The notes under the pieces are model-generated. The model ran no database searches, had not been told where the DNA came from, and saw only the letters and a program-made list of their open reading frames with translations. A DNA stretch of 64,000 nt. Origin: a bacterium (GTDB lineage: Bacteria > SZUA-182 > DTGQ01 > JAFGSM01). The DNA is taken from positions 17,108 through 81,107 of the forward strand of contig JBLIRN010000004.1 in the NCBI GenBank assembly GCA_049472315.1. Direction: 5' to 3'. Shown here piece after piece: positions 13,127 through 58,046 of the stretch (position 1 is the stretch's first letter; the number at the start of each line of letters is the position of its first letter). Both the position numbers and the translations under genes were made by a program.

Positions 13127-13657
13127 TTAAGGGGCATATATCGTCGATACTACTGCAAGAGCAGAGGCAACATCCGGGTTCCCCGTATTTATGAGCAAGT
13201 TTAACAATAATGGATCATTCAGTAATAGGGGATTTAATGCGATCAATCCCAAAACGGCATCGACTTGAGGGTTCCCCGTATTAATTAGAAAATCCGCCAC
13301 TGCAGGTGCAATAAATGAGGTGGGAAACACCGGAGTAATCGCGGGCGGAAACACCGAAACAATCGGAGACGGAAACAGAGGGAAAAGTAATCCGGATGCC
13401 GCGGCAGTCGGAGCGATAGTTGTGGTCGGAGCAGTGAGTACTGGGGATAAAGCAAGCGTCGGATCAATATATGTGGGATAATAAAAGGGTAACAATGCAG
13501 GAAAATACGAGTAAAATGAGAGGTATGGCGAAAAATATTTTGAATAATACAGTGGAGCGAGCGCATTCGCAGGGAAATCGGATATAAACAGGAAAAGAAC
13601 TATCACTAAGACCCAGAGAAGCACCCTCTTGTTTCTGTTTATTTTTTGTGTCTTCAT
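13127..13657 (-). CDS. Secreted low-complexity (Tyr/Pro/Ala/Leu-rich) hypothetical protein
   Basis: SD GGAGGTGA; basic n-region, hydrophobic h-region, A-N-A cleavage-like site; C-terminal LINTGNP(Q/D)V repeated twice. Confidence 0.8.
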   Translation of the reverse strand: MKTQKINRNKRVLLWVLVIVLFLFISDFPANALAPLYYSKYFSPYLSFYSYFPALLPFYYPTYIDPTLALSPVLTAPTTTIAPTAAASGLLFPLFPSPIVSVFPPAITPVFPTSFIAPAVADFLINTGNPQVDAVLGLIALNPLLLNDPLLLNLLINTGNPDVASALAVVSTIYAP

Positions 13658-14069
13658 GGCCTATCACCTCCAGTGGACAGAATTTAATTGTATGAAGAGT
13701 GGAAAATGTATTAAAAGATTAAAAGATAAATGGTTCTACGAATTGCAACAAAGAATAATGATGCATAAATTATGCGGGAGGACCTTTTCGAAATAATCTT
13801 GATTATAAATCAGTTGGATACTGTTAACTATATTATTTTGTCTATTAGTTATTTATGCAAATTAAATAATATAAATTGTAAACAGTTTCATACTGAACTG
13901 TTCCAACACATATCGTCTTTATCCGCTTTATCTTAATAATAGGGAAAAATAAGTGCGGAATGCTATTCCCCTAAAATTTCATCTTCCGTGCTCATCGGAA
14001 GTCCAAGGAAAAAACGATCCTTGATTTTATGAGTCGGATCCATAAATAATGAAGAGTCAAACCCTATCA

Positions 14070-14224
14070 CACGCCAAAAGGCATCCCACTTAGGAAGGCG
14101 TGGACATGTGGAAGGCCGAATATGCGGAAAGGACAGGGATTTCGGTCACATAGTCGAACATCCCTGGTTGTGCGCCAGACAAGTCCAGTATAGGCTTTGG
14201 GGTGAAGCCGCTTCTTATGCCTTT
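14070..14224. ncRNA. Candidate structured non-coding RNA of unknown family
   Basis: Several nested complementary pairs (CAGGGAT/ATCCCTG, TGGAC/GTCCA, GGCTT/AAGCC, AAAGGCAT/ATGCCTTT, CACGCC/GGCGTG) in a GC-richer patch of AT-rich intergenic DNA; no recognised riboswitch consensus. Confidence 0.3.
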
Positions 14225-14394
14225 ACCCTGCTATGCTTTAATCGTCGCAGTTTATGATATTCCTTTACGAATACCTGCCATACCTCGCCGAGGAACTTTG
14301 TTCCGCCGAAGATCATCGCCGGCATGAGCATGATGGTGACCATCACCGACAGCACGAAAAGCAGAAACATTTTTACGAGCAGAATGAGTTTCAT
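14215..14394 (-). CDS. Small membrane protein, 59 aa (missed by the ORF track)
   Basis: MKLILLVKMFLLFVLSVMVTIMLMPAMIFGGTKFLGEVWQVFVKEYHKLRRLKHSRVKA*; SD GGGGAG 3 nt upstream; hydrophobic N-half, basic tail. Confidence 0.6.
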   Translation of the reverse strand: MKLILLVKMFLLFVLSVMVTIMLMPAMIFGGTKFLGEVWQVFVKEYHKLRRLKHSRVKA

Positions 14395-14571
14395 ATGCTC
14401 CCCCTAAAAGAAATTAAGGATATACTCCCCTGCCATGTTGAATATCGATACCTGTCATAACGATCATGGTCACTGTCATACGGTATATCCAACACCGAGT
14501 AGGGGGAAAACCCCCTATTGCCCATTTTTGGGGCCATACAACCCGGTGAGCATAATGCATTTTTATATATG

Positions 14572-15459: not shown

Positions 15460-17034
15460 TCAAAAACCATAGGGATACAAGCCGAGCATGAAGAAGGGAG
15501 AAATTATGGGGAATGAAAGGGCCCCCAGAGAAAAGAAGGGCATGGATGAGGATGTAAAAAGGGGATTGGGTGAGATGAGGAATTGTTGCGAGGGATATCC
15601 CATAGAAAGTGGAAAATATCCCTGCTGTATTCCTTCAATGCCCTCATAGGAGAATGCCGGCACATTCGCTGCAAGATTATAATCGGATACCAGCTTTTCA
15701 CCATATCCGATGAAGGTTGACTGTGCGCCGCGAGGGGTATACGTGCTCAATGCGATCCCTTGCGTCAAGGGCCATTGCTGGGAAACCGATCCGGTTATGT
15801 CATAGGCCGTTGTTGGGTAATTCACGGACGTAGCCGGGCTCGTGCCGCCGACTCCCCATGGGTATGACCATACAGCCCCGTGGATGGTGGGCATTATAGG
15901 ATAGGGAGTAAACCCTATCCCAAACACCGGGAACGTGCCAAACCCAGTGGCAGTCAGCGCCATCGGGAAATAGCTGCCCGTGGATGTGCTGCCTGACGAC
16001 GGCACATATCGTCTTCCCGGTTGGATGGTCACGACACAATCGGTCGCCTCATCCCAATCGACGTATACATCCCGGGGGGCGGAACTCCGGGTGTCGTGAT
16101 TGATGGTCCAACGGTTGGTGGAGGTGTTCAAATATCCTACCGTCACCATCCAATGGTCGCCCCATATGGAATGGCCTGATACGCCATACAGCAACGGCCT
16201 TTTGTGGACGATTTCATCCATTACAATCCCAAAATCGGGAGGCTGAAGAATCGCCCTGAATTCATACTCATTGTCGTACATGGGCGTATTACAGACCCGC
16301 TCGATCCCTATGGGTATATATTCATCGTTGACCCCTCCACGGGCCTCGCCAAGGGAGGGATACCCCATTGCCTGCTGGAGTTCCTCCACGAGTTGCGAAA
16401 CGTCCTCGATGTCCCCGGGGTCGTCGTCCACCAAAAGGGGATATCCACGGGCATCCCAGTACCCCAGCACGCAGGCGGCGGCAACAGGACCACAATTTCC
16501 GGGATCCCCATAATCTTCCTGCCAATAATCCGGTACCCCCGGGATGATCATCTGTCCATCCTCAAGGTCAGGACTTGTGATCTGAATGCTGTAAAGCTCA
16601 TAAGGACCGTATTGGTTGTACCCATTGTAATTTTCTGCCTTGATAAAATAATCACCGTCCGCAGGGCACACCCACTCGATAAGGGAACTGCCGTCCCTCC
16701 AGAAGTCATCGTTACAGGCAAGAGACCCCTCAAATCCCTCGTCGTAGAGCCACACAATCGTATCCACAGGAGGGTATCCGGTCTTCTTTGAACGGGTAAA
16801 GATCTGGTAGCTGAGACCCTCCTCCGCAAAAAATGTAAACCACTGTGTCTCATCGGGAAACGAAAAGGAATATATCGCCGAGTTCCCATTCGGGGTGAGC
16901 GATACGGCGTTTGAAGGCTTGTCATCCTTTTTCTGTGCACGCACATGTGAGGGTCCCGCCAGCATAATGGCCGCCATACCCGCCAGGATCAATGTAATCA
17001 CTCTATTGAAGCGTGATCCGCAGATCATCGTCAC
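15460..17034 (-). CDS. Secreted papain-like (C39/C10-like) cysteine peptidase with PPC-like domain and low-complexity tail
   Basis: Signal peptide (VRA|Q); PPC-like DTIVWLYD...ACNDD...SLIEW...GDYFIKAE; catalytic-type NCGPVAAAC and GDHWMVTVGY, then NHDT; Pro/Gly/Tyr/Phe-rich C-terminal ~180 aa. Confidence 0.72.
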   Translation of the reverse strand: MTMICGSRFNRVITLILAGMAAIMLAGPSHVRAQKKDDKPSNAVSLTPNGNSAIYSFSFPDETQWFTFFAEEGLSYQIFTRSKKTGYPPVDTIVWLYDEGFEGSLACNDDFWRDGSSLIEWVCPADGDYFIKAENYNGYNQYGPYELYSIQITSPDLEDGQMIIPGVPDYWQEDYGDPGNCGPVAAACVLGYWDARGYPLLVDDDPGDIEDVSQLVEELQQAMGYPSLGEARGGVNDEYIPIGIERVCNTPMYDNEYEFRAILQPPDFGIVMDEIVHKRPLLYGVSGHSIWGDHWMVTVGYLNTSTNRWTINHDTRSSAPRDVYVDWDEATDCVVTIQPGRRYVPSSGSTSTGSYFPMALTATGFGTFPVFGIGFTPYPIMPTIHGAVWSYPWGVGGTSPATSVNYPTTAYDITGSVSQQWPLTQGIALSTYTPRGAQSTFIGYGEKLVSDYNLAANVPAFSYEGIEGIQQGYFPLSMGYPSQQFLISPNPLFTSSSMPFFSLGALSFPIISPFFMLGLYPYGF

Positions 17035-18226
17035 ACTCTTTCATCAGGGGGGGATACGAATCCTCCCATGCCCTTCCCTCTTCATGTACTGTCTCCGGGA
17101 TGAGTTCAGACACCCTTTTGAAAGGGAAACTGATTCGAATGACGTTTCCTTGGGCACCGCATTCCTCGACCATCATGCATCCTCCCATGGATACAATCAT
17201 CCGGTAGGTGACATAGAGATCCAATCCGACCCCATCCCGTATGCGGGAAAAAAATTTCCCCACCAGTTCCCTGAATGCCTCCCTGGACATCCCGGGCCCC
17301 TCATCCGCATAATCAATGCTGACCGCGTTGGTATCATTATGCAGCGTGCACGACATGGTAATGGTCCCCGATCCGTTCATTGCATTGTAGGAATGGCGAA
17401 ACAGACGCATGAAGACCTGTTCGAACCGCATCGGGTCCCCCAGCATTTCCGGTATATCCGCGGGGATATCGGTCATCACATGGATGGATGAAAAATCCAT
17501 CGTATGCTTCAGCAGAAAGAGCGAACGCTCAATCACCCGGTCAAGCCGGATGCGTTCCCGATGTTCCTCAAGTGCACGGGTGTACGCCGCCATTTGATCG
17601 ATCGCCTTCACAAGCTGTTGACATTGATTCAGTATCTCTGCAAAGGAATCCCGTGCCTTTGCCAGGTGTACTGCGTCATCCCCCATCTTTGCCAGGTTCA
17701 TTTCCGCATGCAGGCTGATGACGGTAATGGGATTCCTGATCTCATGGGCGAATACGTTCGTCAGTTCCCCTATGTTCAGGAAACCTTCCATGCCGCACCT
17801 GTCTTTGAGCAAACGCACCTGTTCCCTTTCAAGAATATGATGTTCGATCGCCCTCCTCATCTTCAGCTTCAGACGATCATACGGATAGGGGTGCATGATG
17901 TACGCGTAGATATTCCTGCGGTCTATGTCCTCAGCCAGGGTCATGGCATCGTCTGCATGAAGGAGAATAATGCTTATGATATGCGGATGCTCTTTGCGAA
18001 GCGTATCGAGAAATCCGGGGGCACATAGATGCCGCCCGACCACTATAACCGCCAGGCGAGGGGTACGGCTCACAAAGGTACGTGCCTCATCGTGAGAATG
18101 GGCAATAAGAACGGAAAAGGATGTCCCGAGCCTCTTCCTGTATAGGGAAAGTTCCCCCTCGCGATCGTCGACAAAGAGAATGGGAAAATCCCGGTAATTA
18201 ATCTCTCCCCCCACCGGCTGATCCAT
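17003..18226 (-). CDS. Hybrid receiver-histidine kinase with degenerate receiver and ATP-binding motifs
   Basis: ILFVDD receiver start; H-box FAHEIRNPI; DEGPG and GVGLDL G-boxes. Confidence 0.85.
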   Translation of the reverse strand: MDQPVGGEINYRDFPILFVDDREGELSLYRKRLGTSFSVLIAHSHDEARTFVSRTPRLAVIVVGRHLCAPGFLDTLRKEHPHIISIILLHADDAMTLAEDIDRRNIYAYIMHPYPYDRLKLKMRRAIEHHILEREQVRLLKDRCGMEGFLNIGELTNVFAHEIRNPITVISLHAEMNLAKMGDDAVHLAKARDSFAEILNQCQQLVKAIDQMAAYTRALEEHRERIRLDRVIERSLFLLKHTMDFSSIHVMTDIPADIPEMLGDPMRFEQVFMRLFRHSYNAMNGSGTITMSCTLHNDTNAVSIDYADEGPGMSREAFRELVGKFFSRIRDGVGLDLYVTYRMIVSMGGCMMVEECGAQGNVIRISFPFKRVSELIPETVHEEGRAWEDSYPPLMKECDDDLRITLQ

Positions 18227-18893
18227 CTCTATCTCCGCTTAGACCTTGCACAAACTCCCATTTCTTCCGTATCCTCTCGTTTCGTTCAGTCTCATGCACG
18301 CCGCTTCGTGCCCGCAGGCCACTATAACAAAGCCGCCTCGCCGCTTCTTGATCCATAATGGCCATGTCTGATGTCCTCACGAACAGACGTTCTCCACGGT
18401 TCGGTGAATGCATCTCTATCCAGAGTTCCAACGGCGCCGGATAGACATGTCCTGCCACCTCCCAATCCCCCGCGGCAGTCAGCTCCTCGATCAGTTTCAT
18501 GATCCTCGTGATGTTGAGAATATAATCCGGCCATCCGCGGTGCATTTGAATGACCGGCACATGAGAGGTATTCGCCCCTGCCACCACGGTCACTATCCCC
18601 TCCCCCTTACTGTATCCCCGATACAAGGAAAGTGGGTCCTTCCAATTTGCATTGTTCAGCAACGGGGACTCGGGCTCACCCAACAAAAACATAAAGGCCT
18701 GCGGCTGCCGGTCGCAATCCACCAGTACCTCGGTGTGGAGATGCACGAGCCTTCCGAATGCCTCTTGAGCATAATGGAGCGCACCGAGCAGGGCGGTCCT
18801 CTCGTCTACTTCCTGGGATAACCCTGCGTAGGGGACACTGAGAATAAGGATGCTCAGAACGGGGATTGATATGAATCGTGTAACGATCCTCAC
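18198..18893 (-). CDS. Exported hypothetical protein, possible peptidase propeptide/inhibitor-like domain
   Basis: Signal-peptide-like N-terminus; stop overlaps the kinase gene; GTG start. Confidence 0.6.
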   Translation of the reverse strand: MRIVTRFISIPVLSILILSVPYAGLSQEVDERTALLGALHYAQEAFGRLVHLHTEVLVDCDRQPQAFMFLLGEPESPLLNNANWKDPLSLYRGYSKGEGIVTVVAGANTSHVPVIQMHRGWPDYILNITRIMKLIEELTAAGDWEVAGHVYPAPLELWIEMHSPNRGERLFVRTSDMAIMDQEAARRLCYSGLRARSGVHETERNERIRKKWEFVQGLSGDRDGSAGGGRD

Positions 18894-19145
18894 AGTGCTG
18901 TCCTCTCGTTAAGGATGTATAGTCTTATAGAAAGGACGGATTCCGGTGAGAATCCCTTATTCGACGGCACAGGGAAGGATGAAGCGGTGGGGACTTTTAC
19001 AGGATTTTTATGACCTCGTATGAAACATTTTCCCATGTGGGCGCGGAAAATGAAGTGACACACGATTAATGAAACATCCTCTCGGTACCGCCTGCTTTAT
19101 TATGTCTTTTTACAGGAGCGACACCTTTTCCGGGTGGAACGGACC

Positions 19146-19526
19146 TCATACCTTGTCATTTCTCTCAAGGACTTCTCTGACCACCCGCTTCAATTCCTCG
19201 ATTTGAATGGATTTGCTCAGGAATTCAAAGGCACCCAACAACTTTGCCTTGTTTACATTTTCCTTGCCGGTGTATGCGGTAATGACAACGACCTTGAGAT
19301 CGGGTCGGTTCTGCTCAATATAATCCAGGAATTCCATACCGCTCATCTTTGGCATCTTGAGATCCGTCAAGATAAGGTCGAAATCCTCATTTTCGATGGA
19401 GGACAAGGCACTCCTGCCATCTGTGGCTGTCTTTACCTCGTACCCCTCATCCTCGAGGATATCCTGCAAAACAGCCCTCATACCCACATCGTCGTCGATA
19501 AGAAGGATACGTTTGGCGGCCATCAT
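19146..19526 (-). CDS. Single-domain response regulator (CheY-like receiver)
   Basis: ILLIDDD, DLILTDLKMPKMSG, ITAY, FLSK; SD AGGAGG. Confidence 0.93.
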   Translation of the reverse strand: MMAAKRILLIDDDVGMRAVLQDILEDEGYEVKTATDGRSALSSIENEDFDLILTDLKMPKMSGMEFLDYIEQNRPDLKVVVITAYTGKENVNKAKLLGAFEFLSKSIQIEELKRVVREVLERNDKV

Positions 19527-24484: not shown

Positions 24485-24486
24485 CT

Positions 24487-26350: not shown

Positions 26351-26366
26351 TGGCACCGTTTATGCG
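26351..26366 (+). promoter_or_regulatory. sigma54 (-24/-12) promoter
   Basis: TGGCACCGTTTATGCG: GG-N10-GC, about 100 bp upstream of 26465. Confidence 0.6.
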
Positions 26367-32380: not shown

Positions 32381-32419
32381 GGAAAAAAGGGGCGGTCATC
32401 ATCATGATGACCGCCCCTT
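32381..32419 (-). terminator. Rho-independent terminator
   Basis: Stem AAGGGGCGGTCATC / GATGACCGCCCCTT, followed on the minus strand by a T-tract; downstream of 32501-32824. Confidence 0.8.
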
Positions 32420-46308: not shown

Positions 46309-46320
46309 TATTGATCGATT

Positions 46321-46666: not shown

Positions 46667-46695
46667 TAGATACTATAACCCTCAATCGTTGTCAA
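46667..46695 (-). promoter_or_regulatory. sigma70-type promoter for hup
   Basis: TTGACA (46695-46690) - N17 - TATCTA (46672-46667). Confidence 0.55.
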
Positions 46696-46994
46696 GTCTT
46701 TAATTTCCCCAAAATGGTTTCTCTGTCTATTTCTACAGGCAAGGCAGATCTATTTGTTTGATTTTTTTGAATAAATGTATTTACATCCAATATCTGATAA
46801 ACGAAAAAATGACCCCTTTCATTCCCCCCAATTCCAATTTCAAATCGCGAATTCTGGAGCATGGACAGACTTATCTACCTCCTATGGCGCAAGTCCAAAA
46901 ACGGAAATCCCTTTTTCCCCGCCGATTATTTTGCATCCGGATGATTTCCCTGGTACACTATGTTTTTTTTTCATAACAATGGTATTATTAAAGT

Positions 46995-47771: not shown

Positions 47772-47857
47772 AACCTCATCCTTCCCATGCGGCCCACACC
47801 GCTGAGACATGCAGAAAATATCGGGGGGCTTCGCCCCCGCCTTAGAAGGGGGACACA

Positions 47858-50035
47858 CTAAATCAACGGCTTTCCACCCGGGGTCCCGCCCAGGCCGCCT
47901 CCGAAAAATCCCCCGCCGATTCCTCCGCCGACCCCGGGGATACCTCCCCCAAGGACACCACCGCCAAGACCAATTCCGCCTGCCCCAGGACCAGTCATCA
48001 CCGGCGTCATCGCCGGGGTAACCACCGGCGCGGGAACTACGACCGGCGTGGTAACCGGTGCCGTAACCATGGGTGTCACCGGCGCAGCCGGCGGCATAAC
48101 ATTCGGCACCGCACCGCCGATCCCTCCTCCGACTCCGGGGATGCCTCCACCGGGTACACCACCGCCAAGACCAGGTCCACCTCCCCCCGGACCCGCCATT
48201 AACGGGATCATTGGCGGGGTAACCACCGGCGCGGGAACAGTGACCGGAATGGTGACCGGCACCGTTACCGCCGGCGTCACCGGCGCAGCCGGCGGTATAA
48301 CCACCGGCACTGCAGGGGCCGGGGCCACCGGAGCGGTCACCACCGGCGCCGGTGTTACCGCTGCAGGAGGTAGCACAGCCACCGGCACGGTCACCGCAGG
48401 GACCAGGGTAACCGGGGTCGTAACGGCCGGTACCGGTGTTGCGGGCAGTGCAGCAGGCGGCACCACTACGGGTGTGCCCACAGGGGCCGGGGTGATTCCA
48501 ACCGGGGCCACCGCCGTGGGAGGGGTGATTGCAGCCGGGGGCACCACGGTAACGGGTGGTGTGGGAACAACGGTTGGGGTAACCACGGGAATCGCACCCG
48601 GAACCTGGGGAGCAGGCGCAGGGGCAGGGCCGGCAACGGCTATCGGCGTCGAAGGCAAAGCAATCCCAGGTAACGGTGAAGGTGCCTGGGACAGATGGCT
48701 GAGCAGGGAAAGCAGGAAATCAGGGATCCCGCCAGGCAGGGGGATCTCCAGATCAGGGTTCTGAAGCAATGCCATACCCAGGAGGACATCCCCCAGGCCA
48801 TACAGCCCGCCCAGGCCGCCGTAGAGCCCAAAGAGATCTGTCCCGCCGTACAGACCATAGCCGCCGTACAGGCCCATTCCGCCGTATAATCCGAGTCCTC
48901 CGTATAACCCCATTCCGCCGTAGAGCCCACCCAGACCATACAGACCGCCCATACCATATAAGCCTCCCAGTCCACCGGAGAGCCCGAAGAGTCCCATCCC
49001 GCCATAGAGGCCGTAGCCGCCCCCATATGTCCCCAATAAACCCATCCCGCCGTACAGGCCGTAGCCCCCGTAAAGGCCTGCTCCTCCATATAATCCGAGA
49101 CCCCCGTATAACCCGTAGCCCCCATATAAACCCAATCCGCCATAGTATCCAAGGCCTCCGCCGAATCTTCCCACCGAACCGGCGTAGAGCCCCCCCATCC
49201 CTCCATAGATACCATAGGTACCGCCGTAATACCCATATCCTCCGCCATATCCGCCGATTGAGCCAGCCGGATAGATGAGACCGGGATAGGAAATGGGTAC
49301 ATATCCTCCGGCAATGACTACCTGCGAGGTGTTCGAGGAATCATTCCCGGAATCTCCTGAATCGGCATCGGTCTGCGTATCGTCGGGGAGTAGATTCGCC
49401 TCCTCTCCGGCGAGATGGATGAAGACCAATCCAAAATCCTTCCCATCAATCTTTCTGGTAAGCTGGAATGATTCACGGGGATCATTGGAGGACCAACCCT
49501 GGTCAAGCAGGTGCACATTCGTATCGAGGTATATGTCATACGGGCCCGTCTTCTGCCCGGTAACAGGATCCTTCGACCATAACCAGATATTTCCGACGTA
49601 ACAGTCGGCTCCTCTGATTCCGATCCGTGAAACGGCTTTGAAATCGACGATGTCTTCGGCTATATCGTGCTCAAAAAAAACAGGGGTATCCTGCCCTGTT
49701 TCAAGCTCCGCAAGAGGCACCAGGTACAACGATCCCCGCTTTGATCCCGTATCACCCGTATACGGGCAATACTGAACCAATATCCTGGGCATGCGCGGAT
49801 TGTATGTCTCGACAAACAGGAGAACCTCAAAGGTTTCGTTTGCCAGGCAGTAAAAGCTCAGCACCGATTTCTCCTGAATCCATGCGGCATCGTCCCTCAG
49901 GTCCAGGCTCGCATATGATGTCAGGGAATCCGTTCCCACACCATCCCTCGGAGCGCCCAGTATCATCGCATGGGATACGATGAGGAGGATCAAGAACATA
50001 TGCCAAAGGCGAACACCCCTTTTTTCAATCATCAT
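47858..50035 (-). CDS. Large secreted modular protein: globular domain + Gly/Tyr repeat block + Pro/Ala/Val/Thr block + duplicated Gly-rich tail (725 aa)
   Basis: SD AGGAGA before ATG 50035; signal peptide; repeats GLYGG/GGYG and APVVTP-like. Confidence 0.85.
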   Translation of the reverse strand: MMIEKRGVRLWHMFLILLIVSHAMILGAPRDGVGTDSLTSYASLDLRDDAAWIQEKSVLSFYCLANETFEVLLFVETYNPRMPRILVQYCPYTGDTGSKRGSLYLVPLAELETGQDTPVFFEHDIAEDIVDFKAVSRIGIRGADCYVGNIWLWSKDPVTGQKTGPYDIYLDTNVHLLDQGWSSNDPRESFQLTRKIDGKDFGLVFIHLAGEEANLLPDDTQTDADSGDSGNDSSNTSQVVIAGGYVPISYPGLIYPAGSIGGYGGGYGYYGGTYGIYGGMGGLYAGSVGRFGGGLGYYGGLGLYGGYGLYGGLGLYGGAGLYGGYGLYGGMGLLGTYGGGYGLYGGMGLFGLSGGLGGLYGMGGLYGLGGLYGGMGLYGGLGLYGGMGLYGGYGLYGGTDLFGLYGGLGGLYGLGDVLLGMALLQNPDLEIPLPGGIPDFLLSLLSHLSQAPSPLPGIALPSTPIAVAGPAPAPAPQVPGAIPVVTPTVVPTPPVTVVPPAAITPPTAVAPVGITPAPVGTPVVVPPAALPATPVPAVTTPVTLVPAVTVPVAVLPPAAVTPAPVVTAPVAPAPAVPVVIPPAAPVTPAVTVPVTIPVTVPAPVVTPPMIPLMAGPGGGGPGLGGGVPGGGIPGVGGGIGGAVPNVMPPAAPVTPMVTAPVTTPVVVPAPVVTPAMTPVMTGPGAGGIGLGGGVLGGGIPGVGGGIGGGFFGGGLGGTPGGKPLI

Positions 50036-50692
50036 AACTCTCCTTATGTAAGGACAAAACAAGACAGGCAATCGCACCCGCTGTGTCCGACCATTTTTCT
50101 CTTTCTCCGGTCTGCCCGCTCATGGAATTATATCCGGTGTTCCGGGCAACAGGGCCTATGGACATCGATTCTCCACGGAACCCTCGCGTTGATTGAAAAA
50201 CAAAGAGAGTTCTCCGCCTTACTGGTACTACAAGGTTTTGTGAGAAATATAGTAATGGGGGAAACGTACCAAGATATAGTGTATGTGAAGTATACCGATG
50301 TTTATCCTATGTCCCTTATTTATATAGTATGGTCATACCCCCTCGCTTGTCAAGCATCTGTATGGGGAAAATCCCGAGTGGTATCACCCCCCCTATTGTG
50401 ATACTATAATTACAATTACATAATTCCGTTAAGAAATCCCTTTAAGAATCGCGGGGACGTACCGTTTTCATACGGCCGATGCATCCCGAGTCGACTGCTG
50501 CTGTGTAACACCGTTACCGATGTTTATACGGGCCTTCCCTTTGAAATGGTAGGCCTTCGGCGACGATGGCCGATCCACCGCATGCAGGGCAAGGCATTTT
50601 CCCCCGACGATTTCGCGGGTTCGTGATCATCGGATACATAGTATCATACCAACACCTGGATAATCAGCTTTCAGACAGGGAGGTTTTTCAGG

Positions 50693-51613
50693 ATGCGTCT
50701 TCTCGTTGTCGGATCGATCGCCTTGGATACCATAGCCACCCCATTCGGCACCATCAACGAGGGCCTCGGCGGCTCCGCCACCTATTTCTCCTTGGCCGCA
50801 CGACACTTGACGGATATCAATCTTGTTGCCGTGGTCGGCGAGGACTTCCCGCAGGAACATGTATCCCTTCTTCAGGGAAAGGGGATCGATATTGCCGGGC
50901 TTCAGAGGTCTCCGGGGAAGACCTTTCGATGGACCGGCGAGTACGGATTCGACCTCAACGAGGCCCGAACAATCGATACGCAACTTAACGTATTTCAGGA
51001 CTTCACCCCGCAACTGCCCGAGGCCTATCGCAACAGCGAATGCGTCTTTCTTGCCAATATCGATCCGGACCTCCAGAGAGAGGTCCTGGAACAGGTTGAT
51101 TCACCAACTATTGTGGCGTGCGACACCATGAATTACTGGATCCAAAACAAGCCCCAATCGTTAAAAAAGACGATTGAACGGGTTGACATCGTTATCATCA
51201 ACGAGTCGGAGGTGCGGCAGCTCACCGCAGAGCCCAATCTGGTGAAGGCATCCCGCACCATTCTCTCCTGGGGGCCCAGGATATTGATCATCAAGCGGGG
51301 TGAGTACGGGGTCCTGATGTTCTCGGACGATTCGGTATTCTCGGCGCCGGCATATCCCCTCGAGGAGCTGTTTGATCCTACGGGCGCCGGAGACAGCTTT
51401 GCCGGCGGATTCATGGGATTTCTCGCCAATGTCGGCACAGTGGACGAAACCAACGTGCGAAGAGGAATCATCATGGGAAGTGTCATGGCATCCTTTTGTG
51501 TGGAGGCATTTACCCCGCAGCGGCTGATTGACCTGAATCCTCAGGAAATCAGGAATAGATATTGCGAATTCAAACAATTAACGTGTTTCGAAGATCTCTC
51601 CGAGATCATCTGA
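50693..51613 (+). CDS. PfkB family carbohydrate/nucleoside kinase
   Basis: GSIALD, GGSATY, NESE, KRGEYG, DPTGAGDSFAGG. Confidence 0.92.
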   Translation: MRLLVVGSIALDTIATPFGTINEGLGGSATYFSLAARHLTDINLVAVVGEDFPQEHVSLLQGKGIDIAGLQRSPGKTFRWTGEYGFDLNEARTIDTQLNVFQDFTPQLPEAYRNSECVFLANIDPDLQREVLEQVDSPTIVACDTMNYWIQNKPQSLKKTIERVDIVIINESEVRQLTAEPNLVKASRTILSWGPRILIIKRGEYGVLMFSDDSVFSAPAYPLEELFDPTGAGDSFAGGFMGFLANVGTVDETNVRRGIIMGSVMASFCVEAFTPQRLIDLNPQEIRNRYCEFKQLTCFEDLSEII

Positions 51614-51617
51614 TCCG

Positions 51618-54287
51618 ATGCAGGTTATCACCACGCATATAAACGCCGATTTCGATTCCCTCGCCTCGATGGTCGCCGCCAAGAAGCTCTATCCTGATGC
51701 GCGGATCGTTTTCCCCGGTTCACAGGAGGGAAACCTTCGCTATCTGCTGAAGATCCCCGAGTATAAGGTCAGGTATCACAAACCCAAGGAAATCGATCTG
51801 GGCAGTATCGACCATCTGATACTGGTGGACACGCGGATGGCGGATCGTATCGGCGACCTGGCAAAGGTGCTCGATGCACCCGGACTCACGATCCACATCT
51901 TCGATCACCATCCGAGCCATCCCAATGACATCCACGGGCAGGTCGAGGTGGTCAGGCCTGTGGGCGCCACTACCACGCTCTTTGTCAAGATATTTCAGGA
52001 GAAAGGCATCGACATAACCCCCCACGAGGCGACCATCATGGCGCTGGGCATCTATGAGGATACGGGGTGCCTGACCTTCAGTTCGACCACCGCGGATGAT
52101 CTGCATGCAGCCGGATATCTCCTCGAACGGGGCGCAAACCTCAATATGGTTGCCGACCTGATCGACAGGGGATTGACCACCGGCCACATCACCATCATGA
52201 ACGAGCTCCTCAACTCCCTCGAGATCCACCCCATCAACGGTATCCCCATCCACATCGCCACGGCATCCATCGATCGGTACATGGGGGATATTGCAATTCT
52301 GGCCCACAAGATCAGGGATATCGAAAACATGGATACCCTCTTTCTTCTGGTGCGAATGGAGGACCGGGTTCACCTCGTTGCCAGGAGCCGTATCAGCGAG
52401 GTGGACGCCGGCCTGATCGCACGGGAATTCGACGGCGGAGGGCACCATACCGCAGCCTCCGCCACCATCAAGGAAATGACCCTGGTTCAGGCAAAGGAAA
52501 AACTGCTCGCGGTTCTCCAGCACAATATCCATACACCCAAAACAGCCCAGGAGATCATGACGGCACCGGTCAAGACGGTGACCCAGCACCGGAACATGCT
52601 GGAGGCGAAGGACCTGCTGAATCAATACAGTATCAATACCATACCGGTTACCGGAGATTCGGGTGAATTGATCGGCCTGATCACACGACAGACCATCGAT
52701 AAGGCGATCGGACACGGCATGGAGACCGTCCCGGTCAAGGAGTTGATGGTGAGCGATCTCCTCACCGTCGCCCCTGAGACCTCCATCGACAAGGTCAGGG
52801 AGCTCATGATCGAAAGCAACCAGCGATTTTTGCCCGTACTGAGGGGAGAGACCCTGGTGGGAGTGATCACCAAGACCGACCTCCTGCGGGTCCTGCACGA
52901 CGACCTCTCCCGGTTGCCTCGGCCCTTTCTGTATGAAGGGATGGTGGAAAAGGGGGACTACCAGTCCAAGAACCTCACCAGCCTCATCAAGGAACGCCTT
53001 CCTGACCAGGTGCAGGCCCTGCTCAAAACCGCCGGCGAGGTGGCCGAAGAACTGGGCTTCTCCGCTTATGTGGTGGGAGGGTTCGTCAGGGACCTGATGC
53101 TGCGGGTGGAGAATCTGGACATCGACATCGTGGTGGAGGGGAACGGCATCCTCTTTGCCGAGTACATGCATCATAAACTCGGGGGGAGGCTGTGCTCCCA
53201 CCAGAAGTTCGTCACCGCCGTACTCGTGCTCCCCGACGGATTCAAGGTGGATGTGGCAACCGCCCGATTGGAATACTATCCGAAGCCGGTCGACCTTCCC
53301 AGCGTTGAGATGAGTTCGATAAAGCACGACCTGTTCAGGCGGGATTTCACCATCAATACGCTGTCCATCCAGTTGAATCCGCAACACTTCGGCAGGCTCA
53401 TCGATTTCTTCGGCGGGCAGCGGGACCTCAAGGACAAAAAGATCCGCGTCCTGCACAGCCTCAGCTTCGTCGAGGACCCTACGCGCGTATTTCGCGCCAT
53501 CCGCTTCGAACAGCGGTATGGATTCCAGATAGGCAAATATACCAGAAACCTCATCATCTCTGCCATCAAAAGGGGATTGCTTTCACGGCTTGACGGCAAA
53601 AGGCTCTTTATCGAACTCGACCTGATCTTTCAGGAGCCCGATCCCACAAAGGCCCTGACCCGCATGGGTGAATTCAAGGTGCTCGAGCATCTCACGCCAT
53701 CCATCATCTATTCCCCGGATCTCGAGAAATTGATGATCAACGTGAGAAATGTGATTACCTGGCATGAACTGCTGTATCTCACCGAACAGATTGAAAAATG
53801 GATCGTCTATTTTTGCGCGTTGACCGATTCCCTCTCCGATCAGGAGATGATCACACTCCTGGAGCGATTCAACATATCCGCCAAGGCACGGGACAAAATC
53901 GTCTCCTGCCACAGCACCTCCGCGCAGGTGATCAAGAGGCTCTATCGACTCAAGACGAATCAATACAGCAAGATCTACCTCCTTCTTCGTCCCATCCCCA
54001 CCGAAGGACTGCTCTATCTCATGGCCAAGTGCGAGGCATCGAGATTGAAACAGATGATCTCCCATTTTCTGACCTCCCTCAAGGGTGTTCACGTCGCCAT
54101 AACCGGTGAGGATCTCAAAAAAATGGGATTCACCCCGGGCCCTTCATTCAGGGACATCTTTGAAGATTTACTCAAGGCACGCCTGGACGGTATTGTTAAA
54201 AATATCGAGGAGGAGGCCTCATTCGTAGAGGAACGATTCGGTCACCTCCGCACCCGCACAACAAAATCCAAACAGAAGGGGGTGTGA
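51618..54287 (+). CDS. tRNA nucleotidyltransferase with N-terminal DHH, DHHA1 and CBS domains (A-adding type)
   Basis: THINADFD, FDHH, GGGH, CBS pair, VGGFVRD, DIDIV, ATARLEYY, DLFRRDFTIN, EDPTRVFRAIRF. Confidence 0.9.
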   Translation: MQVITTHINADFDSLASMVAAKKLYPDARIVFPGSQEGNLRYLLKIPEYKVRYHKPKEIDLGSIDHLILVDTRMADRIGDLAKVLDAPGLTIHIFDHHPSHPNDIHGQVEVVRPVGATTTLFVKIFQEKGIDITPHEATIMALGIYEDTGCLTFSSTTADDLHAAGYLLERGANLNMVADLIDRGLTTGHITIMNELLNSLEIHPINGIPIHIATASIDRYMGDIAILAHKIRDIENMDTLFLLVRMEDRVHLVARSRISEVDAGLIAREFDGGGHHTAASATIKEMTLVQAKEKLLAVLQHNIHTPKTAQEIMTAPVKTVTQHRNMLEAKDLLNQYSINTIPVTGDSGELIGLITRQTIDKAIGHGMETVPVKELMVSDLLTVAPETSIDKVRELMIESNQRFLPVLRGETLVGVITKTDLLRVLHDDLSRLPRPFLYEGMVEKGDYQSKNLTSLIKERLPDQVQALLKTAGEVAEELGFSAYVVGGFVRDLMLRVENLDIDIVVEGNGILFAEYMHHKLGGRLCSHQKFVTAVLVLPDGFKVDVATARLEYYPKPVDLPSVEMSSIKHDLFRRDFTINTLSIQLNPQHFGRLIDFFGGQRDLKDKKIRVLHSLSFVEDPTRVFRAIRFEQRYGFQIGKYTRNLIISAIKRGLLSRLDGKRLFIELDLIFQEPDPTKALTRMGEFKVLEHLTPSIIYSPDLEKLMINVRNVITWHELLYLTEQIEKWIVYFCALTDSLSDQEMITLLERFNISAKARDKIVSCHSTSAQVIKRLYRLKTNQYSKIYLLLRPIPTEGLLYLMAKCEASRLKQMISHFLTSLKGVHVAITGEDLKKMGFTPGPSFRDIFEDLLKARLDGIVKNIEEEASFVEERFGHLRTRTTKSKQKGV

Positions 54288-55000
54288 TGACTCCCCCCTC
54301 CACGAATGATTACACCATCAAGCTGCCTATATTCGAAGGTCCGATGGACCTCCTCCTCCATCTCATCAAAAAGGCACAGATAGACATCTGGGATATCCCC
54401 ATCGCCCTGATTACCGAACAGTATCTCGATTACATCCGCATGATGCAGGATCTGAATCTGGATGTAGCCGGGGATTTTCTGGTGATGGCCTCGTATCTGA
54501 TGTATCTGAAGTCGAGGATACTCCTCGTTCCCGGGCCGCAAGACGACGAAGAGGACCCGGAGCAGACCCGGCTGCGACTCGCTCAACGGCTGGTTGAATA
54601 CCAGGCCTGCAAGAGGGGATCGGAAATCCTTGCGCAATTTGAAGAGGAGAGGAACAGGGTCATCCCTGCCCCGGGCATCCCCATTCCCTGCGAAGAGGAA
54701 ATGATCGAGGCCGACCTGTTCGATCTCTTCAATGCCTACTACCTCTTATTCAAGGAACAGATCGATCCTGCACGGCCCCATAGCGTTTCCATTGATCCGA
54801 TTGCCGTCAAGGACGAGATGGCGGTAATCGAATCCACATTAAGAGTAAAGAAAAGGATATTTTTTCGTCTTATATATAGCAATTGTGACCCAGCGCGCTA
54901 TATTGCCGGTTTTTTGGCACTCTTGGAGCTGGCCCGGATACATAAAATCACCATCCTTCAAGGGCACACCTTTGGGGATATAGTGATCCAGGCGGCCTGA
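54284..55000 (+). CDS. scpA: Segregation and condensation protein A (kleisin)
   Basis: FEGPMDLLLHLI, IPIALITEQY, FLVMAS, FLALLEL, Q..TFGDI. Confidence 0.93.
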   Translation: MMTPPSTNDYTIKLPIFEGPMDLLLHLIKKAQIDIWDIPIALITEQYLDYIRMMQDLNLDVAGDFLVMASYLMYLKSRILLVPGPQDDEEDPEQTRLRLAQRLVEYQACKRGSEILAQFEEERNRVIPAPGIPIPCEEEMIEADLFDLFNAYYLLFKEQIDPARPHSVSIDPIAVKDEMAVIESTLRVKKRIFFRLIYSNCDPARYIAGFLALLELARIHKITILQGHTFGDIVIQAA

Positions 55001-55168
55001 ACGTTTTTATGTCCGATTGTGCCTTTGAACATACTGATGCATCCGCTTCCGAGTTTCTGCAGCCGTAGATTGGATATCATGGGAACATGCGTTTCACATG
55101 GTATTTATGCAAGAAAATTCATTCTTTATGAAAGGGAGGTTACAGTATACCTACATTATATTACAAAA

Positions 55169-55181
55169 AATCAAACAATTA
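55169..55181 (+). promoter_or_regulatory. IHF consensus site upstream of a sigma54 promoter
   Basis: AATCAAACAATTA matches WATCAANNNNTTR. Confidence 0.45.
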
Positions 55182-55225
55182 ATTGAATCTATTGGATGTG
55201 GCCCCCTGTCAGGTTATTGATTATC

Positions 55226-55241
55226 TGGCAATATTATTGCA
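55226..55241 (+). promoter_or_regulatory. sigma54 (-24/-12) promoter
   Basis: TGGCAATATTATTGCA: GG-N10-GC with TGGCA and TTGCA cores, about 50 bp before ATG 55290. Confidence 0.7.
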
Positions 55242-55289
55242 TAATTAAGGAGCGGATTATCTTATGCAAAGTATGAGGAGGTTTAAGAG

Positions 55290-56633
55290 ATGGGCAACAA
55301 TAAGAAAAGATTTCCTTGTAATATCCTTTTTTTGATCGCATTGTTATGTTTTTTCATGCTACACGCGGCACCGTCGGTGTATGCGCAGTTTTTCCCGGTC
55401 GATCCCGCGCTCGGCGGTTTCGGATTCGGTGGCTTCGGATACAGCGGCTTCGGTGCACCGTTCTCTGGTTTCTACGGACCTCAGCAAGGCGCAGGATTCT
55501 ATGCCCCTCAGTTTGCGCAACAAGGGGGATTCGCCTATCCGGGTGCAGGACTCAATCAGGGATATCTCCCTTCTGGGTCCGCCGCCTTTCCCAATGTACC
55601 CTATGTGCCGCTCTCATCGAATAGTTCCACTTCATCCAACTCCGATACCAGGACCTACCTATCTTATAATCAAGGCTATAATACCGGAATCAACACGGGA
55701 TACAACCCCGGGTTTAACACGGGATACAACCCCGGGTTTAACACGGGATACAACCCCGGGTTCAACACGGGATACAACCCCGGGTTCCTGCCGGGCGGGT
55801 TGCCCACCACAGGAGCCTTCGGCCCGGCAGCGGCTATGTACGGGCAGCAGGCAGGAATCCAGCCATTCGGGTATTCCGGCTTTGCACCCGCAGCTGCCGC
55901 GGGATTCGCCCCCTTCGGACAGGCTGCCGGAATAATGAATCCATTTATGGGCGGCATCGGTGCGCCCTTTGCCAACCCCTTTGCCGCACAAATGGGGCCG
56001 TTCATGCAGCCCGTCCAAATGGGTCCCTTCGGCCCTCAGATAATGACTCCCTGGAATCAAAATCTCATCCGGCAGCAGCAGGGCTTCAATCCATGGAACC
56101 CATATGCAGTGAATCCATACAACCCCTATCCCACTACCGGGGACGATGACGACGATGACGACGACGACACTGCTGTCACGGATGACATCCCCGATATACG
56201 CGGCTACTGGTCCGGTACGTGGACGATCCTGGAAACCGATACCGATCCCAACGGCATGCAGATTATCGTGGAAGTGGCGGAAGGGGACATCCTCTTCCAT
56301 GTCACCTATCAGAAAATGACCGGCGGCGAGCTCAGAGGAACGGTGGAGATCACCGGATGGGATGCCGGGGATTTCCCGGATTGGCACGGCGAGGAGGATC
56401 AGATAACGCTCACCGGGTGGATCGACAAGTACAGCAGATTGCTCTATGCCCACTACTTCAATTTCACCGGGGATGAGCTCAAGAGCGATCTGTCCAATCT
56501 CATTTGCGACTATACCTGGAATTTCGATAATCTGAAGATTAAGGATACCGGTTTTTCCGGAAATTTCTCGATTCATGGAACCAACAACTACTATGCAATC
56601 GGTACCTTCAATGTAGGGAAATATTCACCATAA
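55290..56633 (+). CDS. Secreted Gly/Phe/Tyr/Pro-rich low-complexity protein with tandem repeats, poly-Asp linker and C-terminal domain
   Basis: SD AGGAGG; signal peptide (VYA|Q); (NTGYNPGF)4; D9; tail starting DIPDIRGYWSGTW. Confidence 0.87.
   Translation: MGNNKKRFPCNILFLIALLCFFMLHAAPSVYAQFFPVDPALGGFGFGGFGYSGFGAPFSGFYGPQQGAGFYAPQFAQQGGFAYPGAGLNQGYLPSGSAAFPNVPYVPLSSNSSTSSNSDTRTYLSYNQGYNTGINTGYNPGFNTGYNPGFNTGYNPGFNTGYNPGFLPGGLPTTGAFGPAAAMYGQQAGIQPFGYSGFAPAAAAGFAPFGQAAGIMNPFMGGIGAPFANPFAAQMGPFMQPVQMGPFGPQIMTPWNQNLIRQQQGFNPWNPYAVNPYNPYPTTGDDDDDDDDDTAVTDDIPDIRGYWSGTWTILETDTDPNGMQIIVEVAEGDILFHVTYQKMTGGELRGTVEITGWDAGDFPDWHGEEDQITLTGWIDKYSRLLYAHYFNFTGDELKSDLSNLICDYTWNFDNLKIKDTGFSGNFSIHGTNNYYAIGTFNVGKYSP
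55692..55787 (+). repeat. Coding tandem repeat, 4 x 24 bp
   Basis: AACACGGGATACAACCCCGGGTT(T/C) x4, encoding NTGYNPGF. Confidence 0.95.
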
Positions 56634-56677
56634 TAAACCGGCGCAGATTCTCTGCGGCGATAGAGAATGACGCGGAC

Positions 56678-56706
56678 GACGCCCGTCGATACTATTGACG
56701 GGCGTC
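56678..56706 (+). terminator. Hairpin, possible weak terminator
   Basis: GACGCCCGTC / GACGGGCGTC stem after 56633; short T-tract. Confidence 0.5.
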
Positions 56707-56864
56707 GGTTTCCGCCAAAAGCGTAATTTTTTAAAATTTTTTCGCGTCATTAATGTCAGGAATGCTCTAGGTTTACCTTATTCATCTATCACGAAGGGGA
56801 GGTGAATTGATGCCAGTTTTTTAGCTATCTCTGTCTTTACGCAAAGAAAGGAGATTGTAAGGTT

Positions 56865-58046
56865 ATGAGTGAGAAAAGGTTATCGAGAGTCTTGGTTATC
56901 GGTTTGATCGCGGGTTTTGGAATTGTGTTGTCCATTAGTCTACCCGGGTACGCACAAATAGTTCCTCTGGTTCCTCCTATTCCTATCACTATGCAAACCA
57001 ATTATGTGCAAACGACCCCCTTCACCACTTCAGCCATGAATTCGTCTTACTATCGCGACATCTATACCACATACGGGACCCAAAACACGGCATTTTCCAA
57101 CCCCTTCGCCACCTACGGCTCTTCCTCCATGCTTTATACCGATCCATTTTCACAGGCGGCTTCCAATACCATGTCGTATCAAAATGTCTTTGGGCAACGC
57201 TTTGAAACAGGCCAGGAATTTTACAGGGACCCCTTCTATGCGGCCGGAGGGAAATATACGAATTATTCCTCTCTTATCGGAGGGTTCTCGTCTGAGATGG
57301 GGTATACCATGACCCCGTTTGGAGGCACCACCCACCTGGGGAGTTCATTGACCACACCGTGGACGCACATCGAGACGAATATCAATACGGCAGCGGGCAT
57401 TGCAGGTGCCGGTACCAGCATCCAACACGCGGCATTCGGTATGCCTACCGTGTACAATATGATGGGATTTAATCCTGCGGTTGCAGGCCAATTGTCCCTC
57501 ATGACCTATGGACACGAAACCGCAGCAATGGACAGGATGCTGAGCAATACATACGCCTATACCAAGGAAGGGATGGCGTATATCCCCGTTGCCAGCTACT
57601 ATAATGCAAACAGCGTGGGCGGCACGAACTATTTCTTCGCCGGAGACATCAGCTATCAAGAGGCCGGAATAACCCCTGGCGGCAGCTATGCAGTAAATCA
57701 GGAGGTACCGTCTTCTCTTGTCGGCTATGCAGGCGCTTCATTGGTAACCTCTGCGGCCCTGTCCGGTGCCTTTCTCGGTGCCGGCGCTGCTACTGCTGCC
57801 CCATATGGAGGCTGGACCGGCGGCACGACTGCTGCCTCAACAGGCTCCGGCGCCATTTATGCCGGCTGGGGTGCGGCTCCTACCGGTTCGTTCGGCGTTG
57901 TTTCCGGCGGCTGGGGTGCACCTGCCGGTGGATTTGCAACCGGCGGCGGTGTCTTTGCCGGAGGCGCAGGTCTTGCCGGCGCAGCATTTGGCATAGGAGG
58001 CGGAGGCGGAGGAGCCACCTACGGCGGCACCAATGTGGGCTGGTAA
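56865..58046 (+). CDS. Secreted Gly/Ala/Thr/Tyr-rich low-complexity protein
   Basis: SD AAAGGAG; signal peptide (GYA|Q); GGW/GWG motifs in a Gly-Ala-rich C-terminus ending NVGW; own terminator. Confidence 0.85.
   Translation: MSEKRLSRVLVIGLIAGFGIVLSISLPGYAQIVPLVPPIPITMQTNYVQTTPFTTSAMNSSYYRDIYTTYGTQNTAFSNPFATYGSSSMLYTDPFSQAASNTMSYQNVFGQRFETGQEFYRDPFYAAGGKYTNYSSLIGGFSSEMGYTMTPFGGTTHLGSSLTTPWTHIETNINTAAGIAGAGTSIQHAAFGMPTVYNMMGFNPAVAGQLSLMTYGHETAAMDRMLSNTYAYTKEGMAYIPVASYYNANSVGGTNYFFAGDISYQEAGITPGGSYAVNQEVPSSLVGYAGASLVTSAALSGAFLGAGAATAAPYGGWTGGTTAASTGSGAIYAGWGAAPTGSFGVVSGGWGAPAGGFATGGGVFAGGAGLAGAAFGIGGGGGGATYGGTNVGW

Follow-up and report, generated by a model that had tools for sequence, protein, structure and literature searches.

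Seven genes for predicted exported low-complexity proteins, rich in aromatic residues, glycine and proline, in an uncultured sediment bacterium: candidates for a sticker-spacer envelope matrix

Introduction

Secreted low-complexity (LC) proteins that serve as materials or adhesives are already known in other organisms. For instance, a report on tick cement describes aromatic-dependent phase separation of a secreted glycine-rich protein (GRP) (PMC11794139), and for the curli factor CsgF a phase separation has been described that depends on its Phe residues (PMC10133297). Moreover, a "Q-rule" has been formulated for the substrates of signal peptidase I (SPase I) in Bacteroidetes (PMC5837995). 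Here, we describe seven genes, labelled c1 to c7, that lie in a 64,000-nucleotide stretch of contig JBLIRN010000004.1 (assembly GCA_049472315.1, positions 17,108 to 81,107 of the forward strand). This whole stretch is hereafter called the window. Each gene encodes a protein with an export signal and an LC segment that is nearly free of charge and rich in aromatic residues, Gly and Pro. An initial annotation of the window had regarded the seven proteins as a family that arose by lineage-specific expansion and that builds an extracellular layer, possibly with its own processing peptidase. Our analysis indicates that they are genuine, selected genes that form a compositional class. Tentatively, we favour the view that their products build a protein matrix of the cell envelope or are attached to it.

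Composition and layout of the seven proteins

The seven open reading frames (ORFs) of the initial annotation were all recovered, with the same coordinates and strands:

13127..13657, minus strand: c1, 176 aa
15460..17034, minus strand (ORF; the likely ATG start is at 17028, so 15460..17028): c2, 522 aa
26465..27517, plus strand: c3, 350 aa
32501..32824, minus strand: c4, 107 aa
47858..50035, minus strand: c5, 725 aa
55290..56633, plus strand: c6, 447 aa
56865..58046, plus strand: c7, 393 aa

The aromatic, Gly- and Pro-rich composition that had been claimed for them was also borne out. Pooled over 1722 aa, the LC parts contain 2.9% charged residues (Asp, Glu, Lys and Arg), 13.9% aromatic residues (Phe, Tyr and Trp), 17.3% Gly and 11.2% Pro, as compared with 23.6%, 7.2%, 8.0% and 4.4%, respectively, in the 35 other genes of the window. 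For a comparison with distant genomes, a uniform screen was used that asks for a signal-peptide-like N-terminus and any 70-aa window with at most 3% charged and at least 12% aromatic residues. In the 64-kb window it returned precisely c1 to c7, and it gave no match in 187.8 kb of comparator DNA from 11 distant genomes sharing the same CCA-enzyme gene. At equal rates, all seven matches would land in the window with a probability of about 7e-5. Enrichment across all seven proteins was seen for no single dipeptide or tripeptide motif, and for [NDST]P[FYWL] it is confined to c4, c6 and c7.

All seven proteins do contain an LC stretch. Its extent had been overstated in the initial annotation: in c2 it comprises only the C-terminal ~180 aa, and c3, c5 and c6 carry a globular domain as well. 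Thus, the LC module is joined to a globular domain in four of the seven proteins (c2, c3, c5 and c6), and no such domain could be recognised in c1, c4 and c7. In c1, the signal peptide is followed by a hydrophobic Pro/Leu/aromatic LC region with LINTGNP repeats; exactly this protein has been called in NCBI and in 17 metagenome contigs. In mature c4, an aromatic-Pro / Met-Gly / LNP[WF]L unit occurs in two copies, and the end is Thr-rich. The signal peptide of c7 precedes a Thr/Ser/Tyr/Gly-rich region with [ND]PF motifs, which is biased in composition and free of repetition over residues 45-270, and the C-terminal 120 aa are rich in Gly, Ala and Trp and end in VGW. The largest protein, c5, is built from four parts, the last two of which together occupy residues 421-725:

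residues 30-235 (nt 49331-49948), minus strand: orphan globular N-domain, preceded by an N-terminal signal or anchor
residues 236-420 (nt 48776-49330), minus strand: GLYGG/GGY repeats, ~185 aa
residues 421-725, minus strand: Pro/Val/Ala/Thr spacer and elastin-like Gly-rich GGV/IPG/GGG blocks, including a 201-bp duplication

Selection on the genes and their age

A sister genome, the metagenome-assembled genome (MAG) MF1_202303_bin_233 (GCA_049472355.1; locus L010), covers positions 46045-63999 of the window at ~90% nucleotide identity. The ratio of nonsynonymous to synonymous substitution rates (dN/dS) relative to the orthologues in this genome is 0.21 for c5, 0.28 for c6 and 0.33 for c7 (0.35 for the c7 tail), and it ranges from 0.09 to 0.23 in the flanking housekeeping genes. 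Moreover, all 18 indels in c5, c6 and c7 (five, seven and six, respectively) are multiples of three, as compared with one of the 22 indels in intergenic DNA. The in-frame indels represent gain or loss of repeat units, such as three NTGYNPGF units in c6 and GLYGG units in c5. The LC segments change by substitution and by this in-frame repeat turnover, at about twice the rate of housekeeping proteins. It could be shown that selection keeps the LC segments as a composition with short conserved motifs and not as a fixed sequence. By the same evidence, the seven ORFs are genuine genes under purifying selection. The view that they are untranslated artefacts of GC-rich or repetitive DNA can be regarded as effectively refuted: alternative frames are likewise open over c5 and c6, but the dN/dS values well under 1, the 18 of 18 indels in frame, the strong ribosome-binding sites and terminators described below and the presence of syntenic orthologues at about 44-50% identity all speak against it.

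The comparison with the sister genome also revealed nucleotide patches of 98-100% identity over a background of ~90-93% (positions 56995-57595, 58495-58795 and 59395-59995). The synonymous rate dS is very low (0.04) over residues 45-270 of c7. Nucleotide-level constraint was considered as an explanation and rejected, because this segment is one of several mosaic patches of ~100% identity that also extend over pyrK and pyrD; the low dS is thus due to the patch. The patches suggest either recent recombination between two populations or mosaic binning or assembly.

A more distant relative, represented in the TANS21 metagenomes of ENA (loci L026 and L029), holds c2 and c3 at syntenic positions. 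The order at the c2 locus of this relative is trkA, trkA, trkH, a 186-aa ORF (183 aa in the window), uvrB, a response regulator gene, the gene for a 233-aa protein, a histidine kinase gene and c2, and at the c3 locus it is trkA, c3, a PilZ/T2SSE ATPase gene and an ATPase_2 gene. The orthologues share 44% (c3) and 46% (c2) identity with the window proteins, as compared with 68-95% for neighbouring housekeeping proteins. A third lineage (JXL19, GCA_016934595.1 / SRR13394437; loci L024, L025 and L030) carries both c2-type and c3-type genes. Given their syntenic positions in relatives, c2 and c3 are, on comparative grounds, old, vertically kept and fast-evolving genes of the clade and not recent insertions. 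The neighbours of c1 to c7 in the window are aro, trk, uvrB, pil, gat, scpA, pyr and recJ genes. The seven genes had been described as inserted singly between housekeeping operons; this holds only for c1, as c2 and c3 are syntenic in the relative and a two-component operon ends with c2. In the case of c1, the sister genome has unrelated DNA of ~290 bp in place of the following segment, which identifies c1 as an indel:

12391..14058 (1.67 kb): low-GC (~42%) segment with c1

A compositional class of orphan proteins

The claims of the initial annotation that the seven proteins constitute a family and result from a lineage-specific expansion could not be upheld. In a composition-corrected all-against-all BLASTP comparison, none of the 21 pairs was significant (best E value 0.38), and the uncorrected pairwise matches are compositional only. 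Thus, judged from their sequences, c1 to c7 are a compositional class and not a homologous sequence family; the one apparent relationship, a distant one, is between the C-terminal domains of c3 and c6. None of the seven maps to a known, unrelated family, in agreement with the initial view that they are uncharacterised: searches of Pfam and NCBIfam with E values up to 1 yielded only noise (SNARE, DUF31, FliH, DltA).

Relatives are very few in databases of 5.8 to 15 billion proteins. Seven homologues of c2 were found among 5.8 billion clusters, and c6 has four homologues. An exhaustive HMMER scan of 1.84 billion representatives gave 11 matches to c3, three of which are full-length relatives. No relatives of c7 were found in JGI metagenomes or among plasmids, and none of the c5 N-domain in JGI metagenomes. 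A homology search with the whole of c5 was swamped by low-complexity words, did not return c5 itself and is therefore uninformative. Searches of PDB sequences with the c5 N-domain and with the family profiles of c2, c3 and c6 gave nothing meaningful. The seven proteins are unannotated orphans that are new and restricted to the lineage, and the families of c2, c3 and c6 have no earlier description.

Export, processing and expression signals

At the N-terminus of each of the seven ORFs, a basic n-region is followed by a hydrophobic h-region. The signal-peptide calls are heuristic, and they are supported by N-terminal helices in AlphaFold2 (AF2) models and by conservation of the N-terminus in orthologues. 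The six cleavage contexts quoted in the initial annotation are all present, namely ANA↓L in c1 (after residue 32), VRA↓Q in c2, VEA↓L in c3, AQA↓Q in c4, VYA↓Q in c6 and GYA↓Q in c7. An A-x-A site is missing from c5, for which ILG↓A or SHA↓M are candidate sites; its N-terminus may be a signal anchor instead of a cleaved signal peptide.

An SPase I site is predicted for eight proteins, and five of them (c2, c4, c6, c7 and a secreted 231-aa protein encoded upstream of c2) have Gln at position +1. A cleavage site of the type A-x-A↓Q is ordinary SPase I processing. The proposal that the seven proteins have their own processing peptidase is unsupported, because such sites are standard for SPase I and because the 231-aa neighbour, which has no LC segment, shares the Gln at +1; the sole peptidase-like element is c2 itself. 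The Gln at +1 suggests an N-terminal pyroglutamate, and a lineage-wide pyroglutamate Q-rule may exist. None of the seven C-termini contains a sorting signal of the PEP-CTERM, LPXTG or GlyGly-CTERM type, that is, a motif followed by a transmembrane helix and a basic tail.

Strong Shine-Dalgarno (SD) sites precede c1, c4, c5, c6 and c7, in agreement with the statement that most of the genes have one; c3 has a G-run in this position, and the reading frame of c2 overlaps that of the kinase gene before it. Likewise, three genes had been said to be followed by their own hairpin or terminator, and terminator-like hairpins were indeed found after c4 and c5 and a hairpin 3' of c6:

c1, minus strand: strong SD site, GGAGGTGA
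c4, minus strand: strong SD site, AAGGAGGT
32387..32419, minus strand: strong terminator-like hairpin 3' of c4, 15 pairs and a T-run
47822..47839, minus strand: GC-rich terminator-like hairpin right after the stop codon of c5

The entries for c6 (P0014, 425 aa) and c2 (P0006, 501 aa) in the searched protein collection begin downstream of the starts given here and have lost the signal peptide (window positions 55290-55355 and 16966-17034, respectively). The longer starts are conserved in the sister genome, and that of c6 has a strong SD site. Secretome surveys would therefore miss both proteins. Users of current annotations should be aware that the seven genes appear as orphan "hypothetical proteins" and that c2 and c6 are called without their signal peptides in this collection.

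Predicted barrels in c3 and c6

Only c3 and c6 share an architecture, which consists of a signal peptide, an LC region and a C-terminal domain. In c3, the signal peptide (VEA↓L) is followed by a Tyr/Thr/Gln/Ser/Asn-rich, prion-like LC region (residues 33-240) and a C-terminal barrel (residues 241-350, nt 27185-27514). The LC region contains the conserved islands YQDYYAAYPYLQ, TYQTV and PNANYWPN. In the AF2 model, the predicted local distance difference test score (pLDDT) is 31-43 for the LC region and ~87 for the eight-stranded barrel. The top 30 Foldseek matches of the barrel are avidins, with target-normalised template modelling (TM) scores of 0.6-0.69, ~20% identity and E values down to 1.7e-5. 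Among them, the bacterial avidins wilavidin (7OUR), shwanavidin (3SZH) and rhizavidin (3EW1) are the best structural matches, and nitrobindin, Cap15 and NHBA come next. On the basis of the model, we are confident that the C-terminal domain of c3 is an avidin/calycin-like eight-stranded beta-barrel. Membership in the avidins was not evident from the sequence, as c3 has no Pfam match and the profile search of PDB sequences did not return an avidin. A PilZ-domain T2SSE-type ATPase is encoded convergently to c3 (27563-28972, minus strand), and the arrangement trkA / c3 / PilZ-ATPase / ATPase_2 is syntenic in L029.

The signal peptide of c6 leads to a mature end A↓QF, of which AQF is invariant across the c6 family. 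It is followed by an LC region rich in FG, NPGF and NPW (residues 33-285) with the conserved island FNPWNPY, a poly-Asp acidic linker and a conserved C-terminal domain of ~150 aa (nt 56175-56630). Four near-perfect 24-bp repeats are present at 55692-55786. An hhalign comparison of the c6 C-terminal domain with the c3 barrel gave a probability of 55-70% (E values 2-5e-5 over 49-103 columns), and distant homology of the two domains is no more than likely.

A predicted C39-like peptidase with an aromatic tail

The c2 protein comprises a signal peptide (VRA↓Q), a beta-sandwich, a papain-fold domain and a 180-aa tail rich in aromatic residues, Ser, Gly and Pro (nt 15463-16008). Q170, C179, H286, H292, N310, H311 and D312 are invariant in the seven sequences of the c2 family. 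Weak matches to PF13529 (Peptidase_C39_2) were obtained for four of these seven (best E value 2.8e-5) and c2 itself gave no match at E values up to 1. We predict that c2 is a C39-like cysteine peptidase. The AF2 model of c2 from the seven sequences (pLDDT 43) was too poor for a fold search. Relative to the L026 orthologue, the globular part is 57% and the tail 29% identical; the tail has a pLDDT of ~21, aligns poorly, contains many indels and consists of Pro to 11%. The C-terminus of c2 is YPYGF, and distant homologues end in a recurring [FL]GF[PH]F (e.g. FGFPF), a motif that looks like the beta-signal of outer-membrane proteins (OMPs) or a recognition tag of PDZ proteases.

The gene is the last one of an operon whose upstream part extends over 17003..19526 on the minus strand and which has the same gene order in L023 and L026:

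19146-19526, minus strand: response regulator
18198-18893, minus strand: secreted 231-aa protein with Gln at +1
17003-18226, minus strand: histidine kinase

A JXL19 MAG (L024, 8646-10733) lacks the kinase, and its protein P0010 carries the 231-aa domain at the N-terminus of the peptidase. This fusion argues for a functional link, and the 231-aa domain may be a pro-domain, an inhibitor or a sensor partner. Close to c2, a hydrophobic small protein of 59 aa (MKLILLVKMF...MLMPAMIFGGTKFL...) is encoded at 14215-14394 on the minus strand, which is below the 90-aa cut-off of the ORF list. It is 98% identical to the copy in the sister genome (L023), and another copy lies downstream of c2 in the distant L026.

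Putative regulation of c3 and c6

Two sigma-54-type boxes were considered:

26351..26366, plus strand: sigma-54-type -24/-12 box of c3, TGGCACCGTTTATGCG, 98 nt upstream of c3
55226..55241, plus strand: possible sigma-54-type box of c6 with one mismatch, TGGCAATATTATTGCA, 48 nt upstream of c6

The c3 box is the best-conserved intergenic block upstream of the c3 orthologues in L029 and L030, in a region that has otherwise diverged. Its GG-N10-GC element reads TGGCACCGTTTATGCG in the window, TGGCATCGTTTATGCG in L029 and TGGCACCATTTATGCG in L030, and we regard it as a putative conserved sigma-54-type promoter. For the c6 box, which is a tentative assignment, conservation was seen in no genome but the 90%-identical sister, and the regions upstream of distant homologues have no such box. 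Throughout the window, matches to the box occur at no more than chance frequency, and therefore only the conserved c3 site carries weight. Taken with the two-component operon of c2, the c3 promoter makes it appear that expression is regulated. A gene for a sigma-54 activator (L022, 13141-14139) is located ~2 kb downstream of the distant c6 homologue P0017, at a locus that has no synteny to the window; no sigma-54 box was found upstream of P0017.

Host lineage and other features of the window

The nearest relatives of the host are Desulfobacterota/Nitrospirota-like MAGs, and it belongs to an uncultured sediment lineage. It is present in samples such as SRR29850972, SRR11241202 and DRR8513xx. 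Given these relatives and the presence of type IV pilus genes, the host is probably diderm. The type IV pilus cluster (34428-41771) comprises pilB (with an MshEN domain), pilT, pilC, pilS and pilR (a sigma-54 activator). We also considered c1 to c7 as pilins of this adjacent cluster and rejected the idea, because no ORF of the window contains a prepilin motif. An 889-aa fusion protein (51618-54287, plus strand) combines a DHH/DHHA1 phosphoesterase, two CBS domains and a poly(A) polymerase / CCA-adding head. Apart from the sister species, its closest genome matches reach only ~46% identity; this marks the lineage as isolated.

A possible exported matrix and alternative explanations

As our preferred reading, which we regard as possible and hold tentatively, c1 to c7 are lineage-specific exported disordered proteins of the sticker-spacer type that make up a protein matrix of the envelope or are attached to it. 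Once the proteins are exported, their aromatic residues would act as stickers and their Gly, Pro and polar residues as spacers, and the LC segments would associate with themselves and with each other to give a gel, a coacervate or a fibrous layer of protein within the envelope or at the cell surface. The scaffold material would be provided by c1, c4, c7 and the c5 repeats, and the same type of LC segment would tether modules to the layer, namely the C39-like peptidase of c2, the barrels of c3 and probably c6, and the orphan N-domain of c5. The predicted disorder of the LC regions of c2 and c3 (pLDDT 21-43) is consistent with this picture. Proteins that are high in both Pro and Gly tend towards disordered or elastomeric states rather than amyloid, and this tendency applies to c5 and c6 and less to the Q/N/Y-rich c3. 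In a more specific and rather doubtful version, the seven proteins would constitute a protein-only extracellular or periplasmic condensate or hydrogel, in which the scaffolds c1, c4, c5 and c7 recruit clients (a cysteine peptidase under regulation and calycin barrels that oligomerise or bind ligands) via their LC tails. The logic of such a bacterial exported scaffold-client phase-separation system would be analogous to that of FG-nucleoporin or cement-protein materials.

Several points weigh against a common matrix. The seven proteins are not homologous and their genes are scattered among housekeeping genes; c1 is missing from the sister species and is therefore dispensable. No dedicated secretion, cross-linking or sorting genes lie near the c1 to c7 loci, and an Rfam search of the whole window gave no riboswitch or leader upstream of c1 to c7. 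The background for the enrichment consists of 188 kb of distant genomes and not of whole genomes. Furthermore, Sec export in a diderm bacterium goes only as far as the periplasm; as the host is probably diderm, the term "extracellular" of the initial annotation may go too far.

The most serious rival builds on some of these points and holds that c1 to c7 are seven functionally unrelated exported proteins, in which the LC segments do no more than link domains flexibly or span the periplasm (as TonB-like or extensin-like spacers) and owe their common composition to a lineage-wide bias in exported disordered regions. The lack of pairwise homology, the dispersed loci, the distinct globular domains in four of the seven proteins and the loss of c1 between sister species would all be expected from it. 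However, there is no recognisable globular domain to tether in c1, c4 and c7, conserved aromatic motifs lie within the LC regions, and an aromatic content of 14-19% is atypical of inert spacers, which are usually rich in Pro, Ala, Lys or Glu. We consider this explanation somewhat unlikely. It is improbable that the proteins assemble into functional amyloid fibres of the curli, Fap or chaplin type and in this way build a biofilm matrix. They are secreted and rich in Gln, Asn, Tyr and Gly (c3 above all), and c4 and c6 contain imperfect repeats, but no Curlin, Fap or chaplin profile matched in Pfam or NCBIfam (E values up to 1), no CsgG, CsgE, CsgF or FapF-like genes lie near the c1 to c7 loci and the AF2 model of c3 shows no beta-solenoid. 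Moreover, most of the LC regions are high in Pro and Gly, a combination that disfavours cross-beta structure.

The C-terminal aromatic residues (YGF or [FL]GF[PH]F in the c2 family, VGW in c7), together with a porin-like composition rich in Gly, Thr, Ser, Tyr and Ala, could also mark the c2 tail and c7 as outer-membrane beta-barrel anchors of the autotransporter or OMP type. This appears very unlikely, as the c2 tail is only ~180 aa long, contains 11% Pro, is poorly alignable and indel-rich and has no strands at a pLDDT of ~21; c7 is only 5% charged and contains a 120-aa Gly/Ala tract, and no OMP profile matched in Pfam or NCBIfam. We attach hardly any weight to the idea that c4, and possibly others, are secreted antimicrobial Gly-rich peptides that are matured by c2 as a C39-type peptidase. 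Sec signal peptides take the place of double-glycine leaders, no ABC exporter or immunity gene is adjacent, c2 and c4 are 15 kb apart and the c2 operon encodes a two-component system; these observations stand against the C39-like domain of c2, the small size and Gly/Met-rich composition of c4 and a very weak Bacteriocin_II match (E value 0.07) in one c2 homologue.

If the sticker-spacer matrix exists, about one gene in eight of the region would encode material-like exported disordered proteins, and a poorly known sediment lineage would possess an unrecognised type of protein-based envelope or matrix. The seven proteins would also provide a compact natural set of sticker-spacer sequences (GLYGG, FG/NPGF, Tyr/Gln/Thr-rich and elastin-like) for phase separation outside the cytoplasm.

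Comparison with known systems

The individual domains can be compared with described families. Like the bacterial avidins, c3 has an up-and-down barrel of eight strands and ~110 aa, with G-x-W/Y-x-G-x-W in the first strand. Unlike in these proteins, to which it is only ~20% identical, the barrel is fused behind a 200-aa LC region. The c2 family shares with Peptidase_C39_2 (PF13529) the motifs that contain the conserved Gln, Cys, His and Asn/Asp residues (NCGP..., HW.VT.GY and INHD). It differs by an extra N-terminal beta-sandwich, by the aromatic disordered tail of 180 aa and by its location in an operon with a response regulator, a secreted protein and a kinase. As in the Q-rule of Bacteroidetes (PMC5837995), a Gln at +1 is exposed in four of the seven proteins and in one secreted neighbour, although here the lineage is a different one and the sample consists of eight proteins only.

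With functional amyloid systems such as curli (CsgA/CsgF), Fap and chaplins, c1 to c7 have in common that they are predicted to be Sec-exported, aromatic, Q/N/G-rich envelope proteins, and the phase separation described for CsgF needs Phe (PMC10133297). However, c1 to c7 match no family profile, lack a dedicated secretion operon, are high in Pro and are encoded by dispersed genes. The closest resemblance is to structural and adhesive proteins of the sticker-spacer type, such as the tick cement GRP as it is described in the report cited above (PMC11794139), insect cuticle GGY proteins, plant GRPs, elastin-like Pro/Gly/Val domains and FG-nucleoporins. Common features are a signal peptide, charge-poor Gly/Pro/polar spacers with Tyr and Phe, the GGY/GLYGG repeats of c5, the FG and NPGF motifs of c6, the VPG/IPG/GGG blocks at the C-terminus of c5 and a fast repeat turnover. 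In contrast to these proteins, c1 to c7 are bacterial, share no sequence homology with them, have neither Lys/Ala nor Cys cross-linking domains and are known here from sequence. What is new is the bacterial combination of several non-homologous members, in which predicted calycin barrels and a C39-like peptidase carry the same type of tail and a putative sigma-54 promoter is present.

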